From: an uncultured Syntrophobacteraceae bacterium
GTDB taxonomy: Bacteria; Desulfobacterota; Binatia; UBA9968
Assembly (NCBI GenBank): GCA_964482425.1
Contig: CAYZXN010000221.1
Span: 1-56,441, forward strand
DNA length: 56,441 bases
Reading direction: 5' to 3'
The first letter of the stretch is position 1; every line of letters begins with the position of its first letter. The notes below the pieces were generated by a model. It made no database searches, had not been told where the DNA came from, and saw nothing but the letters and a program-made list of their open reading frames with translations. A program made the position numbers and the translations under genes. Positions 1,437-47,351 of the stretch are shown here, piece after piece.

Positions 1437-1793
1437 TCAATGTAGCGGCTCTAGGCTCTGCAGCAAACCGCTCAGCGAAATCGGCTTTTCGATATAGAGC
1501 GCGCCTACCGCTTTAGCTTCAGCTTGCGCTTGCTCGGAACCGAATGCGGTAATAAGAATGAGACGTTTTCCGGCATCCATCCGGCTCTGGTATTTGAGGA
1601 CGTCGAGACCATTGACCCTTCCGGGCAGGCGAAAATCCGAGATCACGACATCGAATTTTATTTGTGAAATCAACTGCAGAGCAGTCTCGCCGTTTTCCGC
1701 CTGATGCACGGTAAACTCGGCGTTCTGGAGGAACATCGCTATGTTGCGACGCGATAAAGGGTTGTCTTCAACCAGGAGCAGGTTACACGACAT
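1437..1793 (-). CDS. single-domain response regulator (CheY-like receiver, no output domain)
   Basis: 118 aa. Has LLVEDNP, the phospho-acceptor context DVVISDFRLPG, and a conserved KP near the C-terminus. It lies immediately upstream of the kinase on the same strand. Confidence 0.9.
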   Translation of the reverse strand: MSCNLLLVEDNPLSRRNIAMFLQNAEFTVHQAENGETALQLISQIKFDVVISDFRLPGRVNGLDVLKYQSRMDAGKRLILITAFGSEQAQAEAKAVGALYIEKPISLSGLLQSLEPLH

Positions 1794-1967: not shown

Positions 1968-2528
1968 TCACGGCGTCGCTCGCACCGCCGGCCTGTCGAG
2001 GAGGCGCTCCATCCAAGCTTTCACGTGCGGCAAGTCGTCGTTTATGATCGCACGATAGCGCTCTCGCCTGACAAAAAATGGAATGAAAGTAATGTCCGCA
2101 AGGGAGTATCCGTCGGCAATAAACTCCCGGCCGCGCATTTCTCTATCCAGCGTCGCCAGATAATTTTTAAGCTCTTGCGCCGATTCTTCGACTTTGTAGT
2201 TATGGGCTATATAGCCCGCGGCGCGCTGCAGACGGGTGTTACAGTAGTCGACCCAGATTCTTACGCGCGAGCGGGCCATCGGGGTTTTGGGCATCAACGG
2301 TGTTTGCGGATAACTCTCCTCGATATACTCGTTGATAATCGCCGACTCGTACACCACCGCATCGCCGTCCACCAAGACCGGAACCTTCCCGTACGGATTG
2401 AGTTCGAGAAGATCCTTGGGCTTGTTGCTAAGATCGCATTCTATCAAGTCGTAAGAAATCTTTTTTTCCGCCAGGACAAGCCTTGTCCTATGAGCATAGG
2501 GTCAGGGGCCGTAGGAATAGAGCTTCAT
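1968..2528 (-). CDS. glutathione S-transferase family protein with an in-frame TGA at 2502-2504 (candidate selenocysteine, or a nonsense pseudogene)
   Basis: The tracked ORF 1968..2447 starts at an internal TTG and lacks the beta1-alpha1 part of the GST fold. The same frame continues upstream as MKLYSYGP-TGA-PYAHRTRLVLAEKKISYDL from ATG 2528. That ATG is preceded by AAAGAGGAGGTGGCGACG, a strong SD. The rest aligns well with the GST paralog at 31138..31761. Confidence 0.6.
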
Positions 2529-2805
2529 CGTCGCCACCTCCTCTTTCCAGGACTTCTACCACCTGAGGGCGCTTACGGCAACAATCGGTTTTTACGCTCA
2601 GGACGACGGCCTCTTACCTGGCGCTCTGCAGGCATGGCGTTCTTGGCACGATAAAAACAAACTGTTGGGGCGAATAACAAGAATCGGACAAATGATTACC
2701 TCGCGCAAAGACCGCAAAGGACAACAAGTTCTAGATAAATTTTCTTTGCGCGCTAGCGCTCTTGGGGAGATCTCGTTGTGGCTTAGCTGCAACATGGCGG
2801 GCGAT

Positions 2806-7216: not shown

Positions 7217-7591
7217 TTGCGGCGGCTTGGCAAAACGCGCGGTGTTGATGACGGCGCGGCGGTGTGTGCCCTCGCCGATTTTAATGCCCTGATCATTGGT
7301 CGCCGATACTGCGTAACGGAGCTTGTTGCCTTGGATCTCCAGAAGCTCCGCGGTAATCGTCACCTCCTGACCGATCCTTGTCGCCGCCAAATGATGCACA
7401 TCGACGTAAATTCCCACAGTCTGCTCGTTTTCATCCAAGTACGGTTCGGTCAATTCAACGCAGGTTCGTTCCATCAGGCCGATCATCGCCGGCGTCGAGA
7501 ACACATCGGCGCTCAATTGCCGGGCGCGCATCTCCGGCGTCGTCAGATAGGACTGCGTGCGCGCCATACCGGACACCGGTGCTTTTTTCAT
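7211..7591 (-). CDS. hotdog-fold thioesterase (FlK-like family)
   Basis: 126 aa. FSTPAMIGLMERTC and GIYVDVHHLAATRIGQEVTITAEL are typical of small hotdog thioesterases. An alternative start exists at 7567. Confidence 0.75.
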   Translation of the reverse strand: MKKAPVSGMARTQSYLTTPEMRARQLSADVFSTPAMIGLMERTCVELTEPYLDENEQTVGIYVDVHHLAATRIGQEVTITAELLEIQGNKLRYAVSATNDQGIKIGEGTHRRAVINTARFAKPPQG

Positions 7592-7703
7592 CGCCGTAGA
7601 ATACCACGAGCGCGCCGATAATGAAGCTGTCGCCGCCCCTCACGGCGCGCTGCGACCGCTGCGCTCCGGCGGTATTTTGCGCCGTCCGGGAATCGCTGAT
7701 AGC

Positions 7704-7970
7704 ATGGCTTTCATGGACTCCGGGGGAACAATAAGCGTCATCCTGCGCAACAATAATTCCACTCTCGCGACCAACGAGTTCGAAGTGTTTGACAATACCT
7801 GGGGGCGGTCGGTAGGCACCTTTACGCTCAAGGGGGGCGAGTCGAGAGCCATCGAAATAAGCGCGGATGATTCGGGCAAGGGTAGCGTGAAGATACGCAA
7901 TCCCGACCTCGGCCCCAACGATTGGGTGCAAGTCGATGCGATCAGCGCCGGGGACGTGGTGACCGCATAG
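7704..7970 (+). CDS. small hypothetical protein (88 aa, beta-rich, no recognised family)
   Basis: Internal ATG of tracked ORF 7557..7970. The codon pattern looks coding. The competing minus-strand ORFs are Arg/Gly/Ala-rich, as expected for antisense artefacts. No clear SD. Confidence 0.45.
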   Translation: MAFMDSGGTISVILRNNNSTLATNEFEVFDNTWGRSVGTFTLKGGESRAIEISADDSGKGSVKIRNPDLGPNDWVQVDAISAGDVVTA

Positions 7971-8005
7971 GCCGCACAGCCGATCGCCAAAGGCGCGCCG
8001 CCACA

Positions 8006-8614
8006 ATGCTCACGGATCTCACCGTCTGCCCGATCCCCGCGGCGGTAAAAATACTCTACACGCTCTTTGTCTGCGTCCTGGTGCCGGCGTATTGGCGCCA
8101 ATACGGACCGGCTAATTTTCTCTGGTTCTCCGATCTCGCGCTGCTGATCGGACTGGCGGCGCTCTGGCTGGAAAGCCCCCTATTGGCGAGCATGCAGGCA
8201 GTCTCGGTGCTGTTATTGGAACTGATATGGAGCGCGGAGTTTCTGCTGGCGCTGGTGACCCGCAAACCGATCACCGGACTCGTCGATTACATGTTCAAAT
8301 CGGACAAGCCTCTATGGCTGCGCGGTTTGTCGCTGTTTCATCTTGCCTTGCCGCCCCTTCTGCTCTGGTTGGTCTATTGCTTCGGCTACGACCGGCGCGC
8401 CTGGATCGCGCAGACTATTTTGTTCTGGGTCGTAGTACCGATTTGCTTCTTTTTCACCAAACCGAGCGAGAACATCAATTGGGTGTTCGGGCCAGGCGAG
8501 CGGCCGCAACAGAGGATTTCACCACGGCTCTATTTCATATCGATAATGGCAGGCGTGCCGCTGTTCATTTACCTACCGACGCATTTTCTCCTCATTACTC
8601 TGCTGTCAAAATGA
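8006..8614 (+). CDS. integral membrane protein, uncharacterised
   Basis: About 202 aa from ATG 8006, with about six hydrophobic helices (e.g. ILYTLFVCVLVPAYW, LALLIGLAALWL, LLLWLVYCFGY). Confidence 0.6.
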   Translation: MLTDLTVCPIPAAVKILYTLFVCVLVPAYWRQYGPANFLWFSDLALLIGLAALWLESPLLASMQAVSVLLLELIWSAEFLLALVTRKPITGLVDYMFKSDKPLWLRGLSLFHLALPPLLLWLVYCFGYDRRAWIAQTILFWVVVPICFFFTKPSENINWVFGPGERPQQRISPRLYFISIMAGVPLFIYLPTHFLLITLLSK

Positions 8615-8821
8615 CCGACAGCAAACTGACCCGAGCCCTGGAATGCTGGCCGGCAAACTCGATAACAAGTCTTACCGCACCCAATACAGGCGCCGCTATT
8701 TTTGCTTCGTGCTCTTTAGTTCTTTTCTCCTGCCGCTGCGGCTTCGAAAGGACAAACGCCGTCCTTGCCCCTTAGCGAATCACAATCGTGTTTTGTGATC
8801 GTGGCATGTGAATACGCGCAG

Positions 8822-10072
8822 CTAGAGCTGTTCCCTGATGGGGATCGTAAAAAGCTCCAGAAACTTCTCGCGCCACGGCCGGGCGCGCCATTCTTCGTAA
8901 GTCAATAACTTCGAATGGCGCAGATCATCGGCAAACGCCTTTTCTAGCTCGCCGGCGACCGCGCGATCATAGACGATCAAATTGATTTCTTCGTTCAAAG
9001 CAAACGAGCGGTTATCCAAGTTGGTCGTGCCGACGTTGGCCCAGACGCCGTCCACGATCATGGTCTTGGCGTGCATCAGAGCCGCCTGGTACTCGTAGAT
9101 CTGGATTCCGCCGAGTAGAAGAGGCGCAAAGCCCCTACGGCTGGCCCAGTAGACCAGCTTGTGATCGATCTTTCCCGGCGTCAGCACCACCACCGACACA
9201 CCCCTCTTCACAGCCGTGAGAAGCGCCTCCTGTATTCGTTCGTCGGGCAGAAAATACGGGTTCGAAATGTGAACGGTTTTGCGCGCCGACGCGATCGAGA
9301 TCAGCAACAGCATGTATGATTCGAAGCTGCCGCCGAACGGCGAGCTTTTAACGATTTGGGCGTTGACTTTTCCCCTGGGCTTGAGCACCGGAAAATAAAG
9401 ATCGCCGCCCAGCACATGGCCGGTGGTCTCGCGCCAGCTCTCGACAAAAGCGGCCTGTAGTTGTTGTACAACCGGCCCCTCGATTCTTACGTCGGTGTCA
9501 CGCCAGTAGTCGTCGGTGCGGCCGTCCCCCGTCCATGCTTCGGCGACGCCGTGCCCGCCGGTAAAGCCGATGGCGCCGTCAACGACGAGAATGCGCCGGT
9601 GATTGCGATAGTTGTAGCGCAACAATTCCCACGGGGTGATGAATTGAAACAACCGGATGCGCCGGAACCATTCGAGCTGGCAGCCCGACTCAGTCAAAAG
9701 TACGGGAATATCTTTGGGCATTTTGCTGCCGCCGTGTGAATCGACCAAGAGTTTGACGGTTAAGCCGGCGCGGCATCGTTCGGCGAAAGCCTCGGCCAGC
9801 TCATAGGCGATGGCGCCGTCCTGGTAGAGGTATTGCGCATAAGTAATGGATCGCTTGGCCCCCCGGATCGCCTCGAGCATGGCCGGAAAGGTTTGCTCGC
9901 CGTTGAGCAGCACATCCACCCTGTTGCCGTCCAGAATCGGCGCGTCGGTATGCGCGGCAATGGTAGGGAAAAAAGTCGGTTCGCCAACCACCACGCTGTC
10001 GATATGGGTCACCTGAGTAACCCCCGCACAGCCCATGAAGAACAGCAATGTAAGCAGAATAGTTTTGATCAT
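8822..10072 (-). CDS. phospholipase D / cardiolipin synthase family lipoprotein
   Basis: 416 aa with a lipobox (LFFMGC). Two HKD-type motifs: NHRRILVVDG (Arg where Lys is usual) and HAKTMIVDGVWANVGTTNLDNRS. Confidence 0.85.
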   Translation of the reverse strand: MIKTILLTLLFFMGCAGVTQVTHIDSVVVGEPTFFPTIAAHTDAPILDGNRVDVLLNGEQTFPAMLEAIRGAKRSITYAQYLYQDGAIAYELAEAFAERCRAGLTVKLLVDSHGGSKMPKDIPVLLTESGCQLEWFRRIRLFQFITPWELLRYNYRNHRRILVVDGAIGFTGGHGVAEAWTGDGRTDDYWRDTDVRIEGPVVQQLQAAFVESWRETTGHVLGGDLYFPVLKPRGKVNAQIVKSSPFGGSFESYMLLLISIASARKTVHISNPYFLPDERIQEALLTAVKRGVSVVVLTPGKIDHKLVYWASRRGFAPLLLGGIQIYEYQAALMHAKTMIVDGVWANVGTTNLDNRSFALNEEINLIVYDRAVAGELEKAFADDLRHSKLLTYEEWRARPWREKFLELFTIPIREQL

Positions 10073-10539
10073 GATCTATAAAGCTAACAATTTCCCCATC
10101 CTCCAACAAGGTAACTCTTCGCCCACTGGCAACGTTTTGTAGCGCGCTCCCTTATAGCTTATCTCCAGCGGCGCCACACATGTACATTATAAAGATTGTA
10201 GCGGCCAAGCCTCAGGGGTGCCGCGCCGACTGGATCGATATTCGCGGCGAACGGGAGTTCTGACAAGGGTCGACTGAAAACAGCGGTCTCAACTCGTCGA
10301 CGTCGCAGACGAGCCGGTGATGTTTTGCGCGCTATGACCCCGGGAGATGTGTCGCCCAGACAATCCGCCACTAAGAAAGCTGCAGCGATTGAGCCTCAAG
10401 TCCCGGGGATAGCTTGATACCGGGAGTCCCTCCGTTTATATATGTCCTTAATACTTGACGTCCCATCGTTCACAGGCATACTCGGATCGGCTTAGCTTAT
10501 TCCAGCGTGTCCGTTTGATTTTCCATTAGGAGGTAAGAA

Positions 10540-11625
10540 ATGAGCAGTTCGTTGGCAACGAGAATTATCGACGGCGACGGCCATATCATAGAAGACCATG
10601 CCGCAATCATCGCCCACATGGAATCCCCTTACCGCGAGATCGCGCACCGCAAAGGCATCGTTTTTCCGCCGCTGGATCACCTTCACACCGGGCGTGCAGT
10701 GGAAACGCCGCCGCAGCGCGACCAGCGCCCCAGCGTGGGACCTACGGGTTGGCTCGATTTTCTCGACGACGTCGGCATCGACTGGACCGTGCTCTACCCA
10801 ACGACCGCCCTCGCCTATGGGAAAATCGTCAGTCTCGATTATGCGGTAGCCGCATCTCGAGCCTACAACGATTGGCTTCACGAAACCTACATCAAGTACA
10901 ACCCGCGCTTCAAAGGAATGGCGATCATCCCGATGCAAGACCCGGAAGAAGCGGCCAAAGAGTTGCGCCGTGCGGTAACGGAACTGGGAATGCTCGGTGC
11001 CATGATGCCGTCCAATGGTTTGCCGCAGCCGCTGGGCGCCAAGACATACTGGCCGATCTACGCCGAGGCCGATCGCCTCGGCTGCTGCCTGGCAGTGCAT
11101 GGCGGAGCGCATGACCGCTTTGGCATGGATCACATGAATATGTACGTGCCGGTGCATGCTTTGGGCCATCCGTGGGGTCTCACCTTCAACTGCGCGAACA
11201 TCGTTTACAATGGTATCTTCGACCGCTTCCCGCGCGTGCGCATTGCGTTCCTCGAGGGCGGAGTCGCCTGGCTGTTGCTCTTGCTCGAACGGCTCCACGC
11301 TTCGCATGAAACCCACTTCCAATATATTCCGCCGTCCGAGTTCGGCATCAGGGAAGAAGACGACCCGACCAAGTACATCAAGAAACAAATCAATGACGGG
11401 CGGTTTTTCCTCGGCATCGAGACCGAAGAGCTGACCATGCCGTTTGCGATCAAGATCGTCGGCAACCAGCCGTTTCTTTACTCGTCCGATTTTCCGCACG
11501 AAGTCACCCACGAGAGCTGCAAACACGATCTGGGCGAGTTGATGGAAAGCGATGAGATCAGCACCGAAGATAAGGCGGCGCTGCTTTACAAAAATGCCGA
11601 GCGCTTCTACAAACTGCCGCTTTAG
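10540..11625 (+). CDS. amidohydrolase-2 family protein
   Basis: 361 aa. Has IIDGDGHIIE at the N-terminus, AVHGG, and YSSDFPHE near the C-terminus. AGGAGG lies upstream. Confidence 0.85.
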   Translation: MSSSLATRIIDGDGHIIEDHAAIIAHMESPYREIAHRKGIVFPPLDHLHTGRAVETPPQRDQRPSVGPTGWLDFLDDVGIDWTVLYPTTALAYGKIVSLDYAVAASRAYNDWLHETYIKYNPRFKGMAIIPMQDPEEAAKELRRAVTELGMLGAMMPSNGLPQPLGAKTYWPIYAEADRLGCCLAVHGGAHDRFGMDHMNMYVPVHALGHPWGLTFNCANIVYNGIFDRFPRVRIAFLEGGVAWLLLLLERLHASHETHFQYIPPSEFGIREEDDPTKYIKKQINDGRFFLGIETEELTMPFAIKIVGNQPFLYSSDFPHEVTHESCKHDLGELMESDEISTEDKAALLYKNAERFYKLPL

Positions 11626-12902: not shown

Positions 12903-15900
12903 TTAGATAGATAAAGTAGCCGACGGCGCTTGTTCGACCACCCCTAGCATAGGCAGAGTTACTGTAAACACCGATCCCCTGCCGAACTCACTCTCCACCT
13001 CAACCCTCCCGCCGAGCAGATCGGTGAAGGTCTTGACAATGTAAAGCCCCAGTCCTATGCCGCCATGTTTGCGCGTGGTCGAACTGTCCACCTGCTCGAA
13101 CATTTCAAAGATAGTTCTCAATTGGTCCGCAGGGATGCCGACACCGCTGTCGGCCACTTTGATCTCGATGGCGCCGCCGGCCAGTTCCTGGACGAAAGTC
13201 TTTATACTGCCCTTTTCCGTAAACTTTACAGCGTTGTTGATCAGGTTCTGAATCACTGCCTTGAGTTTTTCTTCGTCGCTCATAATGACCGGCAGGTCAC
13301 GCGAAAAGCTCCATTCGAACACCAGCTTTCTCTGATTGGGAATGACGTAATTGGATTGCAGCTCGTCGAGAAGATCACAAAGATTGACATCACCATAGTT
13401 TACTTTGGCCGCGCCCGCCTGAATGGTCGTCACCTGCAGGACATGATCGATCATTCCAAGGAGATCTTGGGTCTGACTGACGATCTTCTCCAGTGCTTTG
13501 TGCTGCTCGGCATTGATGCGGCCGAACGCCTCGGTGCGCATCAGTTCCGTATATCCTTTGATCACATTCAGCGGCGTGCGCAGCTCGTGCGACACGACTC
13601 CGAGAAACTCGTCTTTGCCTCGATTGGCTTTCTCCAGCTCCTCAGTCTTTTGTCGAATCTGCGAAAAGAGATTGGCATTCCCTACTGCAATGCCCATATG
13701 GTAGGCGATCGAATTGATCAACTGATGATCGGATTCGGAAAATTGGTGCGGCTCCCTGCCGAGGAAGTTCATGACCCCCAGGGCTTCTTGTCTGACCTTA
13801 ATAGGAATCAGAAACGAGCTGCGAAAACCGGCTCGCAGCATCACTTTGCTGTGCGCCGTCTGATTGTAAATAGGATCCGTCTGCATGTCTTCAACGATCA
13901 TCGGTTCGCCGGTCTCCAGTGTCCTGCCGAGTCGGCCCTGTCCCGGGCGATAACTTTCGATCAACGAAATGTCCGCCGGTATGCCGGCATGGACCACCAG
14001 CTCCAGATCTCCCGTGGCCTCCTGCCGCAGGAAGATACGCGCGGCATCGAAACCGAAGATCTGCAAGACCTTGCGCATGGTTTTTTCCAGGACGGTTTTA
14101 ATGTCGAGCGATTCGCTGCCGATTGCCGCAATCGCGTAAAGCGCCGAAAGCTCTCGCGCTTTGGTTGCAGTTTGCTGGTAGAGCGTGGCGTTTTCTACGG
14201 CAATTCCGATCTGGTGCGTCATGGATTGGAGCAAGGTGACCTCAGCCGGATCGAGTTTTCGCGGCTCCAGTCCTACGCAGACCATGGCGCCCCAGATTTT
14301 GAGTTTGGTCTTGATCGGAAACATGCCCAGAAACCGTGCTTGGGCTTTCAACGAGCTCCTGGTTTGCGTCAACGCCAGATAGCGCGCGTCGGTAACGATA
14401 TCCTCGAATATGAAAGACTCTCCGGTATCCGCGACTCTGCCGACAATCGATTCGCCGCGCTGGAAATGTATAGCCTCGTTCCAGCATTCCGGCCTCGACT
14501 CGAAAGCCGCTTGAACGTGCAATTCGGTCATCTCCTCGTTGAAAAGAAACACCCGGGTGGCGTCGAAGCGAAATATTTCGGTGACCTTCTGAATGGCTTC
14601 TTTCAAAACCACCGCAAGGTCAAGCGACTGGGTTGCCGCGATTGTCAGTGAATGCAGCGCCGAAATTTCACCTTCGCTTCGCCGCGCCGCTTCGTAGAGC
14701 TTGGCATTGTGAATCGCCAGCGATAGCTGTCCCGCCAGCGTAGTCAAAAACTCGATCTCTTCGCGGCTGAACGAATGACCCTCCTTGGTGTAGAAAGCAA
14801 TAATGCCAAGCAGCTCGTCCTTGGCGATAAGGGGAACGCCATGATAGGAAACCAGGCCGAACCTGCGGGCGAACTGATGGGCGGTGTTGCGCGGCTCTGT
14901 TTGCGCGTTGGCAATCGTAAGCGGTTGCCTGCTCGCCAGAACTAATTTAGCGAAACCCTGCGACGACGACTTCGGGTTTCCGGCGCGCCAGGCGTTCTCG
15001 TCAATATTGCGACACGCAATCGGTTCCAACTCGCCGCTCTCTTTGTTAAGGAGTCTGACGGTCGTGACCGCGCCCGGCAGTACCACATCGATCTTTTCCA
15101 ACAGGAGATCGAGCATCGTCCGCAAATCGAGGGTCGACGCTATGGTCAGATCCATCTCGCGCAAAGCGCGCGTGCGCTCGAGATTTCTCTGAACCTGCTC
15201 GCGAGCAACGGCGGCTTCCGCTCGTTGGCGTTGGAGAGTCGCGGCCATCCGGTCGAGAGAAGCGGCCAGCCTGCCGATCTCATTTGACGAATGCGGCAGC
15301 CCGGAGCGCGCGCCGAGATCGCCCCTGCCGATCTTCTCGGTAGTCGTCACTAAAGCGTTCAAATGGCGCAAGACGAACATTTCGCCGCCGAACCACGCGG
15401 CCGCCAGTGCCAGGATACAAGCCAAAAGCAATGCGGTCAGATTTCGCTTGAGCACCCGATTAGCTTCGCTCAAGGCGACTTCAGTGGGGATACTGATGCT
15501 GATGTGGAGATCGCGCTCGCGCGATGAATCTCCCAATGTTACGAAGCCGAACAGGTGTTCTTTGCCGTCCGGCCCGCTGCCGTGCACAATACCCTCGCCG
15601 GAAGCGGCGGTGTTTTTCAGTAACTGGCCGCCGACAACACGCTTGCCGAGCCACTGTTCATGATCCGGATGGCGCGCAAGAATCGTATTTTGACGGTCCA
15701 GTACGGTCAACGTATAGGTGCTTGGGAGCTGGGCCGCGGCGACAATCTGATTGAAGGACGCCAGATCGAGGCCCGCGTAGACAATCCCGTGAACCTCTCC
15801 GCCATCGTCAAAAAACGGATAGGCCAAAGTCAAACTGGCTCTGCCGCTGATACGACCGACATGATATTCACCGATGGCGAAGCCGGTCGTTTGGAGTGAC

Positions 15901-16298
15901 CGTTGAAAGTAGCTCCGGTCGGCGATGTTCAATCGTTTCGCCAAGGGCCGGCCGCTACAGACGACGTCGCCGTTGAGCCTGGCCAGTCCGAGGTTGGTAT
16001 AGAGAGGATACTCTTTGATCAGCTCGCCAAGCTGAAGGTTACAGCCTCGCGAATCGCCGTTGCGTATGTCGATCAACCGCGACAAGGCCACGAGCAAATG
16101 GCGCGTGCTATCGATCAATCGCTCATGACCCACGGCAAGCACTCGCGCCGCGCGCAGAGCTTCGCCCTCGGCTGACGTCCGAGCCAAGCGCCGCTGCTCC
16201 GCGGCACTGTAGAGAATCAGGGCGAGCGCCGGAAGAACGGCCAGCAAAACCAGCTGAATCAGCCGCACACGAAGACTTGTAGGACTACTCGCGCGCAT
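12903..16298 (-). CDS. large multi-domain sensor histidine kinase (periplasmic Cache-like, HAMP, several GAF, HisKA, HATPase)
   Basis: 1131 aa. N-terminal TM, then a sensor domain and a second TM. HAMP segment (IGRGDLGARSG...EIGRLAASLD). Repeated GAF-like blocks. H-box SHELRTPLN and G-boxes DSGVGI, GGIGLGLYIV. No adjacent response regulator. Confidence 0.9.
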   Translation of the reverse strand: MRASSPTSLRVRLIQLVLLAVLPALALILYSAAEQRRLARTSAEGEALRAARVLAVGHERLIDSTRHLLVALSRLIDIRNGDSRGCNLQLGELIKEYPLYTNLGLARLNGDVVCSGRPLAKRLNIADRSYFQRSLQTTGFAIGEYHVGRISGRASLTLAYPFFDDGGEVHGIVYAGLDLASFNQIVAAAQLPSTYTLTVLDRQNTILARHPDHEQWLGKRVVGGQLLKNTAASGEGIVHGSGPDGKEHLFGFVTLGDSSRERDLHISISIPTEVALSEANRVLKRNLTALLLACILALAAAWFGGEMFVLRHLNALVTTTEKIGRGDLGARSGLPHSSNEIGRLAASLDRMAATLQRQRAEAAVAREQVQRNLERTRALREMDLTIASTLDLRTMLDLLLEKIDVVLPGAVTTVRLLNKESGELEPIACRNIDENAWRAGNPKSSSQGFAKLVLASRQPLTIANAQTEPRNTAHQFARRFGLVSYHGVPLIAKDELLGIIAFYTKEGHSFSREEIEFLTTLAGQLSLAIHNAKLYEAARRSEGEISALHSLTIAATQSLDLAVVLKEAIQKVTEIFRFDATRVFLFNEEMTELHVQAAFESRPECWNEAIHFQRGESIVGRVADTGESFIFEDIVTDARYLALTQTRSSLKAQARFLGMFPIKTKLKIWGAMVCVGLEPRKLDPAEVTLLQSMTHQIGIAVENATLYQQTATKARELSALYAIAAIGSESLDIKTVLEKTMRKVLQIFGFDAARIFLRQEATGDLELVVHAGIPADISLIESYRPGQGRLGRTLETGEPMIVEDMQTDPIYNQTAHSKVMLRAGFRSSFLIPIKVRQEALGVMNFLGREPHQFSESDHQLINSIAYHMGIAVGNANLFSQIRQKTEELEKANRGKDEFLGVVSHELRTPLNVIKGYTELMRTEAFGRINAEQHKALEKIVSQTQDLLGMIDHVLQVTTIQAGAAKVNYGDVNLCDLLDELQSNYVIPNQRKLVFEWSFSRDLPVIMSDEEKLKAVIQNLINNAVKFTEKGSIKTFVQELAGGAIEIKVADSGVGIPADQLRTIFEMFEQVDSSTTRKHGGIGLGLYIVKTFTDLLGGRVEVESEFGRGSVFTVTLPMLGVVEQAPSATLSI

Positions 16299-16789
16299 TC
16301 GACGCCGCTCTCTCCAACAGATTCGTTCACCTAACCAATTTGTAGCCGTGCCGCGACGATCACGTTTTGAAGTTCAACGCCTGCGAAGCGATTCTCTTTC
16401 TGCTCTTTGCGCAGGATCATTTCTCCGCTCCGGGAGGGCCCAGCTCGCGACATCTTACTGCTCACTGCCCACTCAATTGAGGCTTCCATATTAAGAATTC
16501 ATGAGCCACTCCAAGAGCCGGCACCGCCAGTGATCCACGCCTGGCAAGGAGTTTGACGACATTTTAGACGGCGAAAACGACCATTGAGACGGGTAACTCT
16601 ACCATGAAGCTCAAAGGATTGCCCCAGCAAAATACCACAAGCAGCACCGCCTGAGCAGTCAGCGTGTTCGGATGCGCAGCAGGGAATAAGTACCATGGCA
16701 GGTGTAAGGCCAGGCCAAAGCCGAAGCACGAAGCCAAAACGTTCAAAACTAAATAACCCGGCAAGCTCCGGCCCGGCAGACTCCAGGCC

Positions 16790-16836
16790 AAAAAAACGCC
16801 GGATCGAGGCTGATTATCAGCCGTGCCGATCCGGCG
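16790..16836 (-). terminator. intrinsic terminator after the DUF1328 gene
   Basis: On the minus strand the stem CGCCGGATCG...CGATCCGGCG (10 bp) is followed directly by a run of 7 T. Confidence 0.7.
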
Positions 16837-16866
16837 GTGTCAAACTTATTTAGGCGTTTCGTCTGG

Positions 16867-17034
16867 TCAAGCCAGAGGCCCGCGCCTACCGGTGACGAGA
16901 CTAACCAGGAAAAGAACCAGAAAAACAACAAAAAGGATCCAGGCGATCTGGGTCGCCGTCCCGGCTATGCCGGACAGGCCCAAAAGGCCGGCAATCAAAC
17001 CGACGACTAGAAATAAGATGCTCCAATTAAGCAT
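16867..17034 (-). CDS. DUF1328 (UPF0391) small membrane protein, 55 aa; below the ORF-track length cutoff
   Basis: My own translation: [55 protein letters not shown]. It matches the characteristic UPF0391 pattern (FGGIAG-like core, C-terminal GRR). GGAGA lies upstream and a terminator downstream. Confidence 0.75.
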
Positions 17035-17084
17035 TGTCTGTCTCCGTCTATAGGTAACTGCGCCTGTTCCGCGGTTAACTTATT

Positions 17085-17654
17085 TTAACCCGCTTCTTCG
17101 ACTTCACCTTCCCGCGGCAACAGTTCGATCCGAACCAGAGTTATTCCTGACTCGACGAAACCCAGTCTATCGGCTGCCGCGCGCGACAGATCGATGACCC
17201 TTTCACCGACATAGGGGCCGCGATCATTTATTTCCACCTCAACGGTATTGCCATTTTCCAGATTAGTAACTCTCGCTCTGGTGCCCAGCGGCAGTGTTTT
17301 GTGCGCGGCTGTAAGTTTTTCCTGATCGAAAATCTTGCCGCTGGCTGTTTTCCTGCCGTGAAATCCGGGACCGTACCAAGAAGCTTCGCCGCGGATCACC
17401 CTGTTTTCTGGAATGCTACCTCTCTTTGTTTGAACCTGAGCTTTACGCTTTGCTTGAACCGGCGGCGAAACTGGACGAGACGCCGAGCTGTCGATGGATG
17501 CCGCCTCAACAGCTTTCGGTTGAAGCGCTTGTAGCGCTGATCCGGATACGGAACCGCAGCCTTGCATCAACCCGGCAACCAACAAGAACGCCGGTGCGAA
17601 TTGTGACCGTGGCGTATTGCAGAAAACCTGTTTCGAAAGTTTTGGCGAGACCAT
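17085..17654 (-). CDS. rlpA: septal ring lytic transglycosylase RlpA-family lipoprotein (DPBB domain)
   Basis: GEASWYGPGFHGRKTASG...AAHKTLPLGT...V.VEINDRGPY is the RlpA DPBB signature. ATG 17654 follows GAGGAGG. Lipobox LMQGC. Confidence 0.85.
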   Translation of the reverse strand: MVSPKLSKQVFCNTPRSQFAPAFLLVAGLMQGCGSVSGSALQALQPKAVEAASIDSSASRPVSPPVQAKRKAQVQTKRGSIPENRVIRGEASWYGPGFHGRKTASGKIFDQEKLTAAHKTLPLGTRARVTNLENGNTVEVEINDRGPYVGERVIDLSRAAADRLGFVESGITLVRIELLPREGEVEEAG

Positions 17655-17978
17655 CTGTGTGTCCTCCTCTCCAACCGGGCTCATTCGCCGGTTATTGTGA
17701 CGAAACTTGTTGCGATGGTCTCTACCGCAAGAGGTATGCCGCCGACCCCAGAAAATTTCATAAGTCATTGATTTTTCGAGTGTTTCTTATCCGTGGAGCG
17801 GTGCGTGCAAACCCGGGTTGTACTAAATTCCCTACAAGCCCTACTCCAATCCGCACGCTGACAAAAAGCCAAAAAAGGCTTTAGACAGGGAAGGTGTGAT
17901 GCGCCCCGCTGCGTCAGACGCGTCTTATAAATGGGACAATTGTACTCAAGGGTCGATCGGCCGTGGTGTTTGAGAGCT

Positions 17979-31137: not shown

Positions 31138-31761
31138 TCAGTGCCGCGCTCCGTACTCGGCGATGGATCGGTGGTTGGGGCGCTTCATCATGCGGTCAGT
31201 CCATGCTTTGAGACGGGGGAATCGATCCGGCAGGCCGACGCCCATGTCGACGAGGCGGGACAGATTCGGGGTGAAGGCGATGTCCGCGATACTGTATTCG
31301 CCAGCCAGAAAATCTTTGCCGTCCAGCTCTTCTTCGAGCCTCTCAAAGATGCTCGCCATGCTTTCAAATGCCGCGGCAATCAGCGTGTGGTCCCAATCTT
31401 CCTTGTCAACACTGCGAGTGAGTCGCGAGATGGTCTTCAGCGCGGGATAGAGATGGTTGTCGCGGAAATCCTCCAGGATACGCGCTTTGGCGCGCGCGGC
31501 GGGGTCTTGCGGAAAAACGGGTACCTGAGGATATTTCTCCTCAAGGAATTCGTTGATGATGGTCGACTCGTAAATGACCACACCGTCATCGTCCATGGCG
31601 GGCACAAGCCCATATGGATTGATACGAAGATACTCGGGGGCGGTTTGCTCTTTTTTTCGTAAATCGATAATCACGCTTTCGTAGCTCAGGCCCTTTTCGG
31701 CGAGGACGAGTCTCACCTTCTGGCAATTGCTCGATGGCGGATATTCGTAAAGTCTGATCAT
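31138..31761 (-). CDS. glutathione S-transferase
   Basis: 207 aa. Has MIRLYEYPPSSNCQKVRLVLAEKGL...NPYGLVPAM..VIYESTIINEFL and a C-terminal GST helical domain. Confidence 0.9.
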   Translation of the reverse strand: MIRLYEYPPSSNCQKVRLVLAEKGLSYESVIIDLRKKEQTAPEYLRINPYGLVPAMDDDGVVIYESTIINEFLEEKYPQVPVFPQDPAARAKARILEDFRDNHLYPALKTISRLTRSVDKEDWDHTLIAAAFESMASIFERLEEELDGKDFLAGEYSIADIAFTPNLSRLVDMGVGLPDRFPRLKAWTDRMMKRPNHRSIAEYGARH

Positions 31762-46247: not shown

Positions 46248-46934
46248 TCAAGGGTAAGGCGATTTGAATCGTCGCTGTTGGTTGTCCCAAGAGAAGGTAC
46301 GGATTGATTGATCAGCGAGCGAAATCTGAGCCCGGCTGCCACGCCGCAAGTACATTTTGACCCAATAATCATAGAAGTACTGGATGTCCTGCGTAGCTTC
46401 TTCAGGACGTCCTTCTGCGGTTTCAAAACGAATGGTAACCCATCGCCTGTGTAGAGAGATTCCGATCAGCAGACTGTTATTCCGACCATCCAGATAGGCG
46501 CCGACAGTTCGTAGTATATGCGACAAACTATAAGGATCGGGCATGTGATCCAAGCCAGAGCGCTTTGTCTGAGCCAGATGGTCAAACTTTACAATTTCTT
46601 CAAGGTTGTAGCGGAGGTTGAGAACCTCTGAGCTCGCCGACCCCAAATGGCCCCTAAGAAATGCTCCGAGCTGCGTCATCCATAGGCGCGGAACGTCAGC
46701 AATGGAAGGCCTTTTACTACTGGGTTGTACAATTCCCCGGACAATATAGGTATCTGCGACCCATACCAGATCAGCGCTTGAGATCTCCCGGCGCTCCAGT
46801 AGTTGACCCACCACCCGAAGGTCTCGGGCATAGGAGGGGAGAGGCCTATCATCCGGTCTTAGAATTTCATGGGCGTCTTGATGAGACTCCACAAAATCCG
46901 ACTTCAGTAAATTATTGGTGATCTTCATAGTCAA
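46248..46934 (-). CDS. hypothetical protein, no recognised family
   Basis: 228-aa ORF (TTG 46934, or ATG 46928) in a stretch that looks lower in GC than its neighbours. Composition is coding-like. Confidence 0.55.
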   Translation of the reverse strand: MTMKITNNLLKSDFVESHQDAHEILRPDDRPLPSYARDLRVVGQLLERREISSADLVWVADTYIVRGIVQPSSKRPSIADVPRLWMTQLGAFLRGHLGSASSEVLNLRYNLEEIVKFDHLAQTKRSGLDHMPDPYSLSHILRTVGAYLDGRNNSLLIGISLHRRWVTIRFETAEGRPEEATQDIQYFYDYWVKMYLRRGSRAQISLADQSIRTFSWDNQQRRFKSPYP

Positions 46935-47351
46935 ACCGCCAAAGCGTTGTCCGTCCCGCTGCTTGACCGCAGTCTCGACTTTCTTCGCTTTCGGCAGCTC
47001 GGCTGTCAGAGGTGGCGCTCGATTCGTGTAACGCCTCTGACCCTTGGCTTTCCGCCCTCCCCTTGCAGAGAGTTTGGCTTTTTCAGGCGAGTTGAATACT
47101 CCGACGGAGTCCTCCGCCGTAACCCTTGGTTGACTGCTGGAGCAATCGGGAGGCCACCGCCGGTGCTTTGGAAATACTTGATTTAACGACGTGCTTTGTT
47201 CGAGGTAAGCGGTATGGGCCTGACACTTGCCATAGGTTGTCTGACACTAGTGACAGAGAGGTCATTTAAATGGTAGGGCGTATGCGCGATTGCAGTTCGT
47301 GCTTAGAAACCAACCGGAACGGATCTGGATGGAACTGCACCGACAGTTCTG

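Follow-up and report, generated by a model that had tools for sequence, protein, structure and literature searches.

We report a gene that very probably encodes a selenoprotein of the glutathione S-transferase (GST) fold in the window, by which we mean the whole 56,441-nt stretch of DNA analysed here. Judging from sequence comparison, positions 1968–2528 on the minus strand are predicted with high confidence to specify a 186-residue enzyme with a catalytic selenocysteine (Sec), and the in-frame TGA at its ninth codon is in all likelihood a real Sec codon at the catalytic site of this GST-like enzyme.

The coding sequence (1968..2528, minus strand) is complete, with 186 codons including that for Sec, and ends at a TGA stop at 1970–1968. 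Its true start, ATG 2528–2526, is preceded at 8 nt by a Shine-Dalgarno site, GAGGAGG (2537..2543, minus strand), read directly from the sequence. The first eight codons, MKLYSYGP (2505..2528, minus strand), correspond to strand beta-1 and lie 5' of the in-frame TGA (2502..2504, minus strand); ORF callers drop them. The TGA itself is residue 9 and opens the motif U-P-Y, and past it the frame runs as PYAHRTRLVLAEKKISYDLIECDL..., in phase with the listed ORF at 1968..2447, up to the terminal TGA. A SECIS-like hairpin follows at 2472..2490 on the minus strand. An earlier, sequence-only reading of the window had described the same opening, MKLYSYGP-TGA-PYAHRTRLVLAEKKISYDLIECDL, as continuous with that ORF, and our reading of the minus strand agrees; it had also noted the Shine-Dalgarno site but had counted 7 nt between this site and ATG 2528, where the spacer is actually 8 nt.

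When Cys is put in place of the stop, Pfam GST_N and GST_C matches span all 186 residues, and the matches to GST_N, GST_N_2 and GST_N_3 begin at residue 1 (E-values of 6.6e-21 for GST_N_2, 4.3e-19 for GST_N and 1.6e-09 for GST_C). The translation thus comprises a thioredoxin-like GST_N domain and a helical GST_C domain, the combination expected of a Cys-type (omega-like) GST. A shorter product has to be weighed against this one, namely a functional 159-aa protein initiated at an internal TTG (2447), with the 8-codon ORF and the hairpin acting as a leader peptide or regulatory element. Such a product would match the NCBI, JGI and ENA annotation of the family, but its thioredoxin-like domain would have neither beta-1 nor helix alpha-1, nor the catalytic residue, and the missing residues, PYAHRTRLVLAEK, are among the most conserved of the family and fit the GST_N models from residue 1. 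No Shine-Dalgarno site stands 5' of the TTG, and the annotated internal starts vary among relatives (giving 136 to 177 aa), as expected for gene-caller artefacts. We consider a 159-aa product very unlikely.

Conservation of the in-frame TGA among relatives

A protein search returned 1685 homologs of the window GST. Of the 120 database entries nearest to it (65–98% identity), about 100 are at most 159 aa long, truncated just where the window ORF is; a single protein, P0002 from JGI, was called at full length and has W at codon 9, the gene caller having taken the TGA for Trp. At the nucleotide level, every metagenome locus with sequence at codon 9 (76 of 76; 61–83% protein identity) has TGA there, and so do all 30 MAG loci (61–86% identity). 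Apart from a few binned elsewhere, the MAG matches bear the title Candidatus Binatia or 'Deltaproteobacteria bacterium'. Among 68 distinct full-length coding sequences, the internal codon is TGA in 68 and never TAA or TAG; the terminal stop of the same sequences is TAA in 28, TAG in 24 and TGA in 16. The study of Sargasso Sea selenoproteins (PMC1088965) used as a criterion that an in-frame TGA be conserved in at least two different sequences, and such conservation is found here.

Coding constraint extends to both sides of the TGA. The ATG is kept in 67 of the 68 distinct coding sequences, and variation in codons 2–8 is mostly synonymous or conservative (for example, AAA/AAG, CTC/CTA/CTT and TCC/TCT). 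Codons 10–13 also vary synonymously, so the protein sequence is constrained 5' and 3' of the codon, which is itself a selenoprotein criterion. A GGAGG or GAGG-like motif lies at the matching distance in nearly all 106 orthologous loci. The TGA is also retained in an independent assembly (Logan SRR34022963, L081) with 98.2% nucleotide identity to the window. The exact window protein was matched only on a 1.4-kb Logan contig, and the best match to it in a species-representative genome has 86% identity.

These observations bear on the reading in which a Cys or Ser codon has turned into TGA, through decay of a pseudogene or through sequencing or assembly error. The sequence-only reading had held a nonsense mutation to TGA as its fallback and had mentioned other seemingly disrupted genes in the window, and a single sequence could not exclude this. 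The fallback is refuted by the same TGA in 106 of 106 loci, which come from many samples and assemblers and span 61–86% identity. Purifying selection on both flanks of the TGA and the consistent use of TGA at the internal stop point the same way, and the 106 loci together with the independent, 98.2% identical assembly effectively exclude a one-off nonsense mutation or an assembly error, so that we give this reading almost no credence. Reassignment of the codon is excluded too, since TGA closes many of the long window ORFs and is therefore an ordinary stop here, incompatible with code 4 or code 25. We conclude that the TGA most likely encodes Sec in a clade that, from the sequences at hand, appears to be invariably of the Sec form, all of its more than 100 members being Sec and no Cys ortholog exceeding about 55% identity.

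A conserved hairpin downstream of the TGA

Counted from the U of UGA, the hairpin UAGGACAA-GGC-UUGUCCUG occupies nt 15–33 and has an 8-bp stem, with the 5' arm at nt 15–22 (2490–2483), the loop GGC at nt 23–25 (2482–2480) and the 3' arm at nt 26–33 (2479–2472). Re-reading and folding the sequence gave the positions first proposed for it, an 8-bp hairpin at nt 15–33 with G23 and G24 apical. The terminator of the window gene, TGA 1970–1968, has no such hairpin. Relatives were proposed at the outset as a check, and they keep both the TGA, in 106 of 106 loci, and the hairpin. We aligned 58 distinct 51-nt stretches beginning at the TGA, in which loop bases G23 and G24 are invariant and position 25 is C or A. 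The stem columns (15–22 against 26–33) are paired in 97% of cells, compared with 25–51% when the 3' partner is slid by 1–3 columns. Pair 21–27 is AU in 51 of the 58 sequences, GC in 3, UA in 1 and UU in 3, and the MAG loci add further GC, UA and GU cases. True covariation is confined to one stem pair, and the remaining support for the hairpin is conservation.

The signal is strongest in synonymous codon choice. Codon entropy was computed over the 68 coding sequences for 57 gene columns with a conserved four- or six-fold degenerate residue; columns within codons 14–19 have 0–0.75 bits, and the other 52 columns all have at least 1.05 bits, with a mean of 1.67. The hairpin codons are Arg AGG (60/68), Thr ACA (58/68), Arg16 AGG (68/68), Val GTC (67/68) and Leu CTG (63/68), and over 19 long window ORFs AGG makes up 9% of Arg codons and ACA 10% of Thr codons. 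The initial impression that the stem's AGG codons are infrequent and hint at selection on the RNA is borne out by this 9% share and by the near-frozen synonymous sites. Two Cys relatives that encode the same HRTRL peptide (L119 and L120) use CGN codons for Arg and lack the hairpin. The near-frozen hairpin codons, set beside these CGN-using, hairpin-free relatives, indicate an RNA-level constraint that has been added to the coding constraint at just the place where a bacterial SECIS element is expected.

Published criteria for bacterial SECIS elements describe a stem-loop right after the UGA with a small, G-containing apical loop (PMC1088965), and the downstream stem-loop found here has a small apical loop that contains G. 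Taken by itself, the window sequence is less distinctive. A 66-nt fold of this single sequence is thermodynamically unremarkable against shuffled sequences (z = +0.67), and under a loose SECIS-like definition a comparable hairpin follows 19 of the 1770 TGA triplets of the window (about 1%). The hairpin is thus not beyond chance within the window alone, and the case for it rests on the relatives. Rfam searches at the gathering and E-value thresholds gave just one match close to the gene, a chance snoRNA hit (E = 0.14), and none to a SECIS or tRNA-Sec family. The SECIS element of E. coli fdhF is a hairpin 11–12 nt past the UGA, inside the coding sequence, with a small apical loop and a G at position 23. 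Compared with this element, the window hairpin has the same spacing, small loop, G23 and intragenic position, but its triloop is GGC (GGA in some relatives) and not GGUC, and its stem has no bulged U.

Catalytic-site homologs and previously predicted GST-like selenoproteins

Outside the clade, CPF or CPY occupies the aligned position in most of the nearest full-length homologs (38–53% identity; P0123, P0124, P0129, P0130, P0133 and P0138, among others), and SP in a few. Genome loci at 33–45% identity (L115–L125) carry TGC or TGT at the aligned codon and have no hairpin. Alignment of the TGA with Cys in at least two homologs, a further selenoprotein criterion of PMC1088965, is accordingly found, and the sequence-only reading's proposal to look for Cys in homologs is answered by Cys, without a hairpin, in the more distant ones. 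A PDB search placed query residues 2–184 on residues 25–214 of human GSTO1 (1eem_A), with residue 9 at Cys32. BLASTP against GSTO1 paired CPFAERTRLVL with UPYAHRTRLVL, in agreement with the PDB search. The TGA had earlier been assigned to the catalytic-Cys slot of CPY/CPF-type GSTs, and its alignment with GSTO1 Cys32 and with the Cys homologs supports that assignment. In GSTO1, Cys32 is catalytic and forms a mixed disulfide with glutathione (GSH) in thiol-transferase reactions (PMC12294179).

The likeness to human GSTO1-1 (1eem) amounts to 30% identity over 190 residues and includes the VP and ES motifs of the GSH site and the correspondence of C32-P-F-A-E-R-T-R-L-V-L with U9-P-Y-A-H-R-T-R-L-V-L. 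KVPVL and YES, both GSH-site motifs, do not vary within the family alignment. The C-P-[FYW] motif that marks Cys-type GSTs at the start of helix alpha-1 is present, with Sec in the place of Cys. GSTO1 differs in having Cys and not Sec; the window protein is bacterial, has 186 aa and is without the approximately 23-residue N-terminal and 27-residue C-terminal extensions of GSTO1 (alignment 24–214 of 241). The omega class, as represented by GSTO1, has an N-terminal extension of about 20 residues and an extra C-terminal helix. Assignment to the omega class in the strict sense was rejected, as the window protein has only 8 residues ahead of the catalytic one and stops at the equivalent of GSTO1 residue 214 of 241.

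SspA and SspA-like proteins (6v91, 4qq7; NF007016) give the best NCBIfam match and near-best PDB matches by sequence, and they have CPF at the aligned position. SspA is an RNA-polymerase-associated regulator that is not known to have GST activity. The gene context of the window GST is unrelated to that of SspA, and an SspA equivalog was rejected, the NCBIfam model NF007016 scoring 112.6 bits against a cut-off of 314; NCBIfam holds no model specific for the window clade. On these sequence relationships we infer a Cys-type GST in the omega/SspA-like sequence neighbourhood, with U-P-Y standing for C-P-F/Y at the N-terminus of helix alpha-1. An AlphaFold2 model of P0002, built with 25 mostly truncated homologs, had a pLDDT of 62, with the N-terminal domain below 50, and was set aside as too poor there. 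The window also holds a GST-family paralog (31141–31761, minus strand; 207 aa) that is 35% identical to the Sec-GST and aligns Ser with the catalytic position, as had been noted for it earlier (at 31138).

GST selenoproteins were first predicted in the Sargasso Sea data in 2005 by Zhang, Fomenko & Gladyshev, from four sequences (PMC1088965), and the GOS survey of 2008 counted 12 GST selenoprotein sequences against 1036 Cys homologs (PMC2398784). Reviews of 2022 and 2026 list them as an uncharacterised family (PMC9312934; PMC13188914), and no GST-like protein has experimental support for containing selenium (PMC13188914). The statement in the sequence-only reading that such proteins are metagenome predictions only agrees with this literature (PMC1088965, PMC2398784, PMC13188914).

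The window protein and the Sargasso Sec-GSTs share the GST fold and Sec at the same aligned position after beta-1 (uPW or uPY in the Sargasso sequences, uPY in the window), and in the BLASTP alignments U9 falls on the u of each of the four, as expected of that family. In both groups a SECIS-like hairpin lies directly 3', and all members are computational predictions. In AACY01575427 and AACY01615117 the hairpin has a 6-bp stem (nt 17–31) and a triloop GGC or GGA at nt 23–25, and the GG of the loop comes from an AGG Arg codon, as in the window gene. The groups differ in that the Sargasso proteins have only 33–46% identity to the window protein (three of the four being gene fragments), whereas the nearest Cys homologs, P0123 and P0124, are closer to it at 50–53%, so the two do not group as one subfamily. 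The window clade is terrestrial or from groundwater, in Binatia or 'Deltaproteobacteria' MAGs, whereas the Sargasso and GOS Sec-GSTs are marine. By sequence, the window gene appears to belong to a separate, always-Sec clade of an already known kind of selenoprotein.

Two more distant GST clades (about 36–43% identity) also have TGA at the catalytic position. L132 (131–200) reads MRKLFDYLP-TGA-PYAMRTRIVL and has the same hairpin; L133 (552–620, GCA_027293745.1) reads MIQMYHWPT-TGA-PWCQKVRIAL, with a U-P-W-C motif and a different hairpin. With these TGA-bearing clades, the published counts appear to understate how widespread Sec-GSTs are. Several other 50%-cluster representatives (P0179, P0190, P0206, P0239 and P0259) begin just past this position and may be further Sec-GSTs that are misannotated.

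Selenocysteine machinery, predicted function and gene neighbourhood

Searches of the window and of 129 related loci (1.07 Mb) turned up neither selA, selB, selD nor tRNA-Sec. Over the same sequence, tblastn with E. coli SelA, SelB and SelD gave no match; ARAGORN, applied to the window and 119 loci, called no tRNA-Sec, and Pfam annotation of 30 large window ORFs revealed no gene of the Sec machinery. Sequence scans of the window and related loci yielded no second selenoprotein gene, with off-frame artefacts as the only results both of a codon-usage scan for further in-frame-TGA genes in the window and of a scan for TGA codons conserved between loci. A literature search linking Binatia to selenocysteine or selenoproteins returned nothing relevant. 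ARAGORN also called an 87-nt 'tRNA-Ile(gat)' at 7220–7306 on the plus strand. This stretch has no Rfam tRNA at either threshold and falls within the gene of an FlK-like hotdog thioesterase on the minus strand, and the call is probably a false positive.

The UGA might instead be read, independently of Sec machinery, as a standard amino acid delivered by a suppressor tRNA or by a near-cognate tRNA for Trp or Cys, with the hairpin as a generic stimulator of read-through. This would accord with the lack of Sec machinery in the sequence searched (window and related loci) and with the W given to the codon in P0002 by one gene caller. The base after the UGA is always C, because the next residue is an invariant Pro, and UGA-C is a weak, leaky termination context. 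Yet the codon stands for the catalytic Cys of homologs, a hallmark of Sec and not of Trp or Gly, and the hairpin has the spacing, small loop and G23/G24 of bacterial SECIS elements and matches the published elements of Sec-GSTs. A direct Cys or Trp codon would have been available, yet none of the 106 loci uses one, and TGA is a normal stop in the window, under neither code 4 nor code 25. We regard read-through by a standard amino acid as unlikely and retain Sec as the residue at this codon.

For the window GST, SelB dependence, selenium incorporation and chemistry are proposals of the following form. Translation would start at ATG 2528, and the mRNA hairpin 11 nt 3' of UGA 2504–2502 would recruit SelB with Sec-tRNA(Sec) to the codon, where Sec would be inserted in place of chain termination. 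If the selenolate behaves as Cys32 does in GSTO1, its attack on a disulfide or on a glutathionyl-sulfur substrate would give a Se–S mixed intermediate, which a second GSH would then resolve. By the same analogy, we infer that the chemistry is one of thiol transfer, deglutathionylation or reduction and not of conjugation.

Gene neighbourhoods differ among subclades. Close relatives are syntenic with the window, where on one flank the GST gene is followed by genes for a response regulator and a PAS histidine kinase; the other, divergent flank carries Amidohydro_2, a glyoxalase-fold protein, an NMT1-type binding protein, UbiD, an FlK-like thioesterase and PLD. The response-regulator gene (1437..1793, minus strand; Pfam Response_reg) lies 175 nt 3' of the GST gene, and it is conserved in this arrangement in the SYGP-U subclade only (L001–L004 and L080–L092). 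In the TY[RK]P-U subclade, a gene for an NMT1-type ABC substrate-binding protein lies 120–230 nt 3' and an FlK-like hotdog thioesterase gene lies 5'; in the SYQP-U subclade, the thioesterase gene lies 21–26 nt 5' of the GST gene. Across these two subclades the Sec-GST gene is 21–200 nt 3' of the FlK-like hotdog thioesterase gene and on the same strand (L018, L021, L024, L025, L037, L039, L045, L048, L053, L055, L058, L096, L102 and L103). This arrangement suggests that the thioesterase and the Sec-GST, in some cases with the NMT1-type protein, may form an operon. Because the neighbourhoods are subclade-specific and not universal, context does not fix the function or substrate.

A broader reading, which we put forward only tentatively and as a whole, is that this soil and groundwater clade is invariably of the Sec form, that it gained Sec separately from the marine Sec-GSTs or through transfer of a SECIS-bearing N-terminus, and that its enzyme carries out a selenium-dependent reaction beyond the reach of a Cys enzyme, perhaps within a catabolic or transport module that would include the two proteins encoded beside it in two subclades, the NMT1-type binding protein and the FlK-type hotdog thioesterase. 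If this were true, Sec-GSTs would, together with the L132 and L133 clades, be far commoner and more diverse than the dozen or so marine sequences. To our knowledge, no selenoenzyme of the GST fold has been characterised biochemically, and the family consists of metagenome predictions. With more than 100 diverse sequences, no Cys form in 106 loci and a very well-defined SECIS-like element, the clade offers a good candidate for expression, and it suits the question of what a thiol-transferase-type GST gains from Sec. NCBI, JGI and ENA annotate its members as truncated proteins of 136–177 aa from which the active site is missing, with NCBI naming them truncated or partial 'glutathione S-transferase family protein', so the Sec-GST is missed when selenoproteomes are surveyed or when the metabolism of Binatia and related soil lineages is reconstructed. 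The finding implies selenium use by abundant uncultured bacteria of soil and groundwater. It corrects an annotation and would not surprise a selenoprotein specialist.

Other features of the window and its relatives were recorded in passing. A c-di-GMP-I-GGC riboswitch (RF03167) at 46989–47087 on the minus strand scores 61 bits against a gathering score of 59 and lies 5' of a 228-aa ORF (46248–46934, minus strand) that has no Pfam match. Several overlapping ORFs without a Pfam match occupy 7217–8775 and 10492–11526. DNA of this part is kept in relatives at 73–77% nucleotide identity (blastn, 7227–7954 and 8025–8614), and by this measure the ORFs would be conserved genes of no recognised family and not obviously pseudogenes. 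In L084, an ENA long-read contig, apparent frameshifts at about 9950–10000 and 13950–17700 split FAD_binding_5/CO_deh_flav_C, Ald_Xan_dh and the GST N-terminus; the sister contigs L083 and L085 are intact, and the frameshifts are probably assembly indels.
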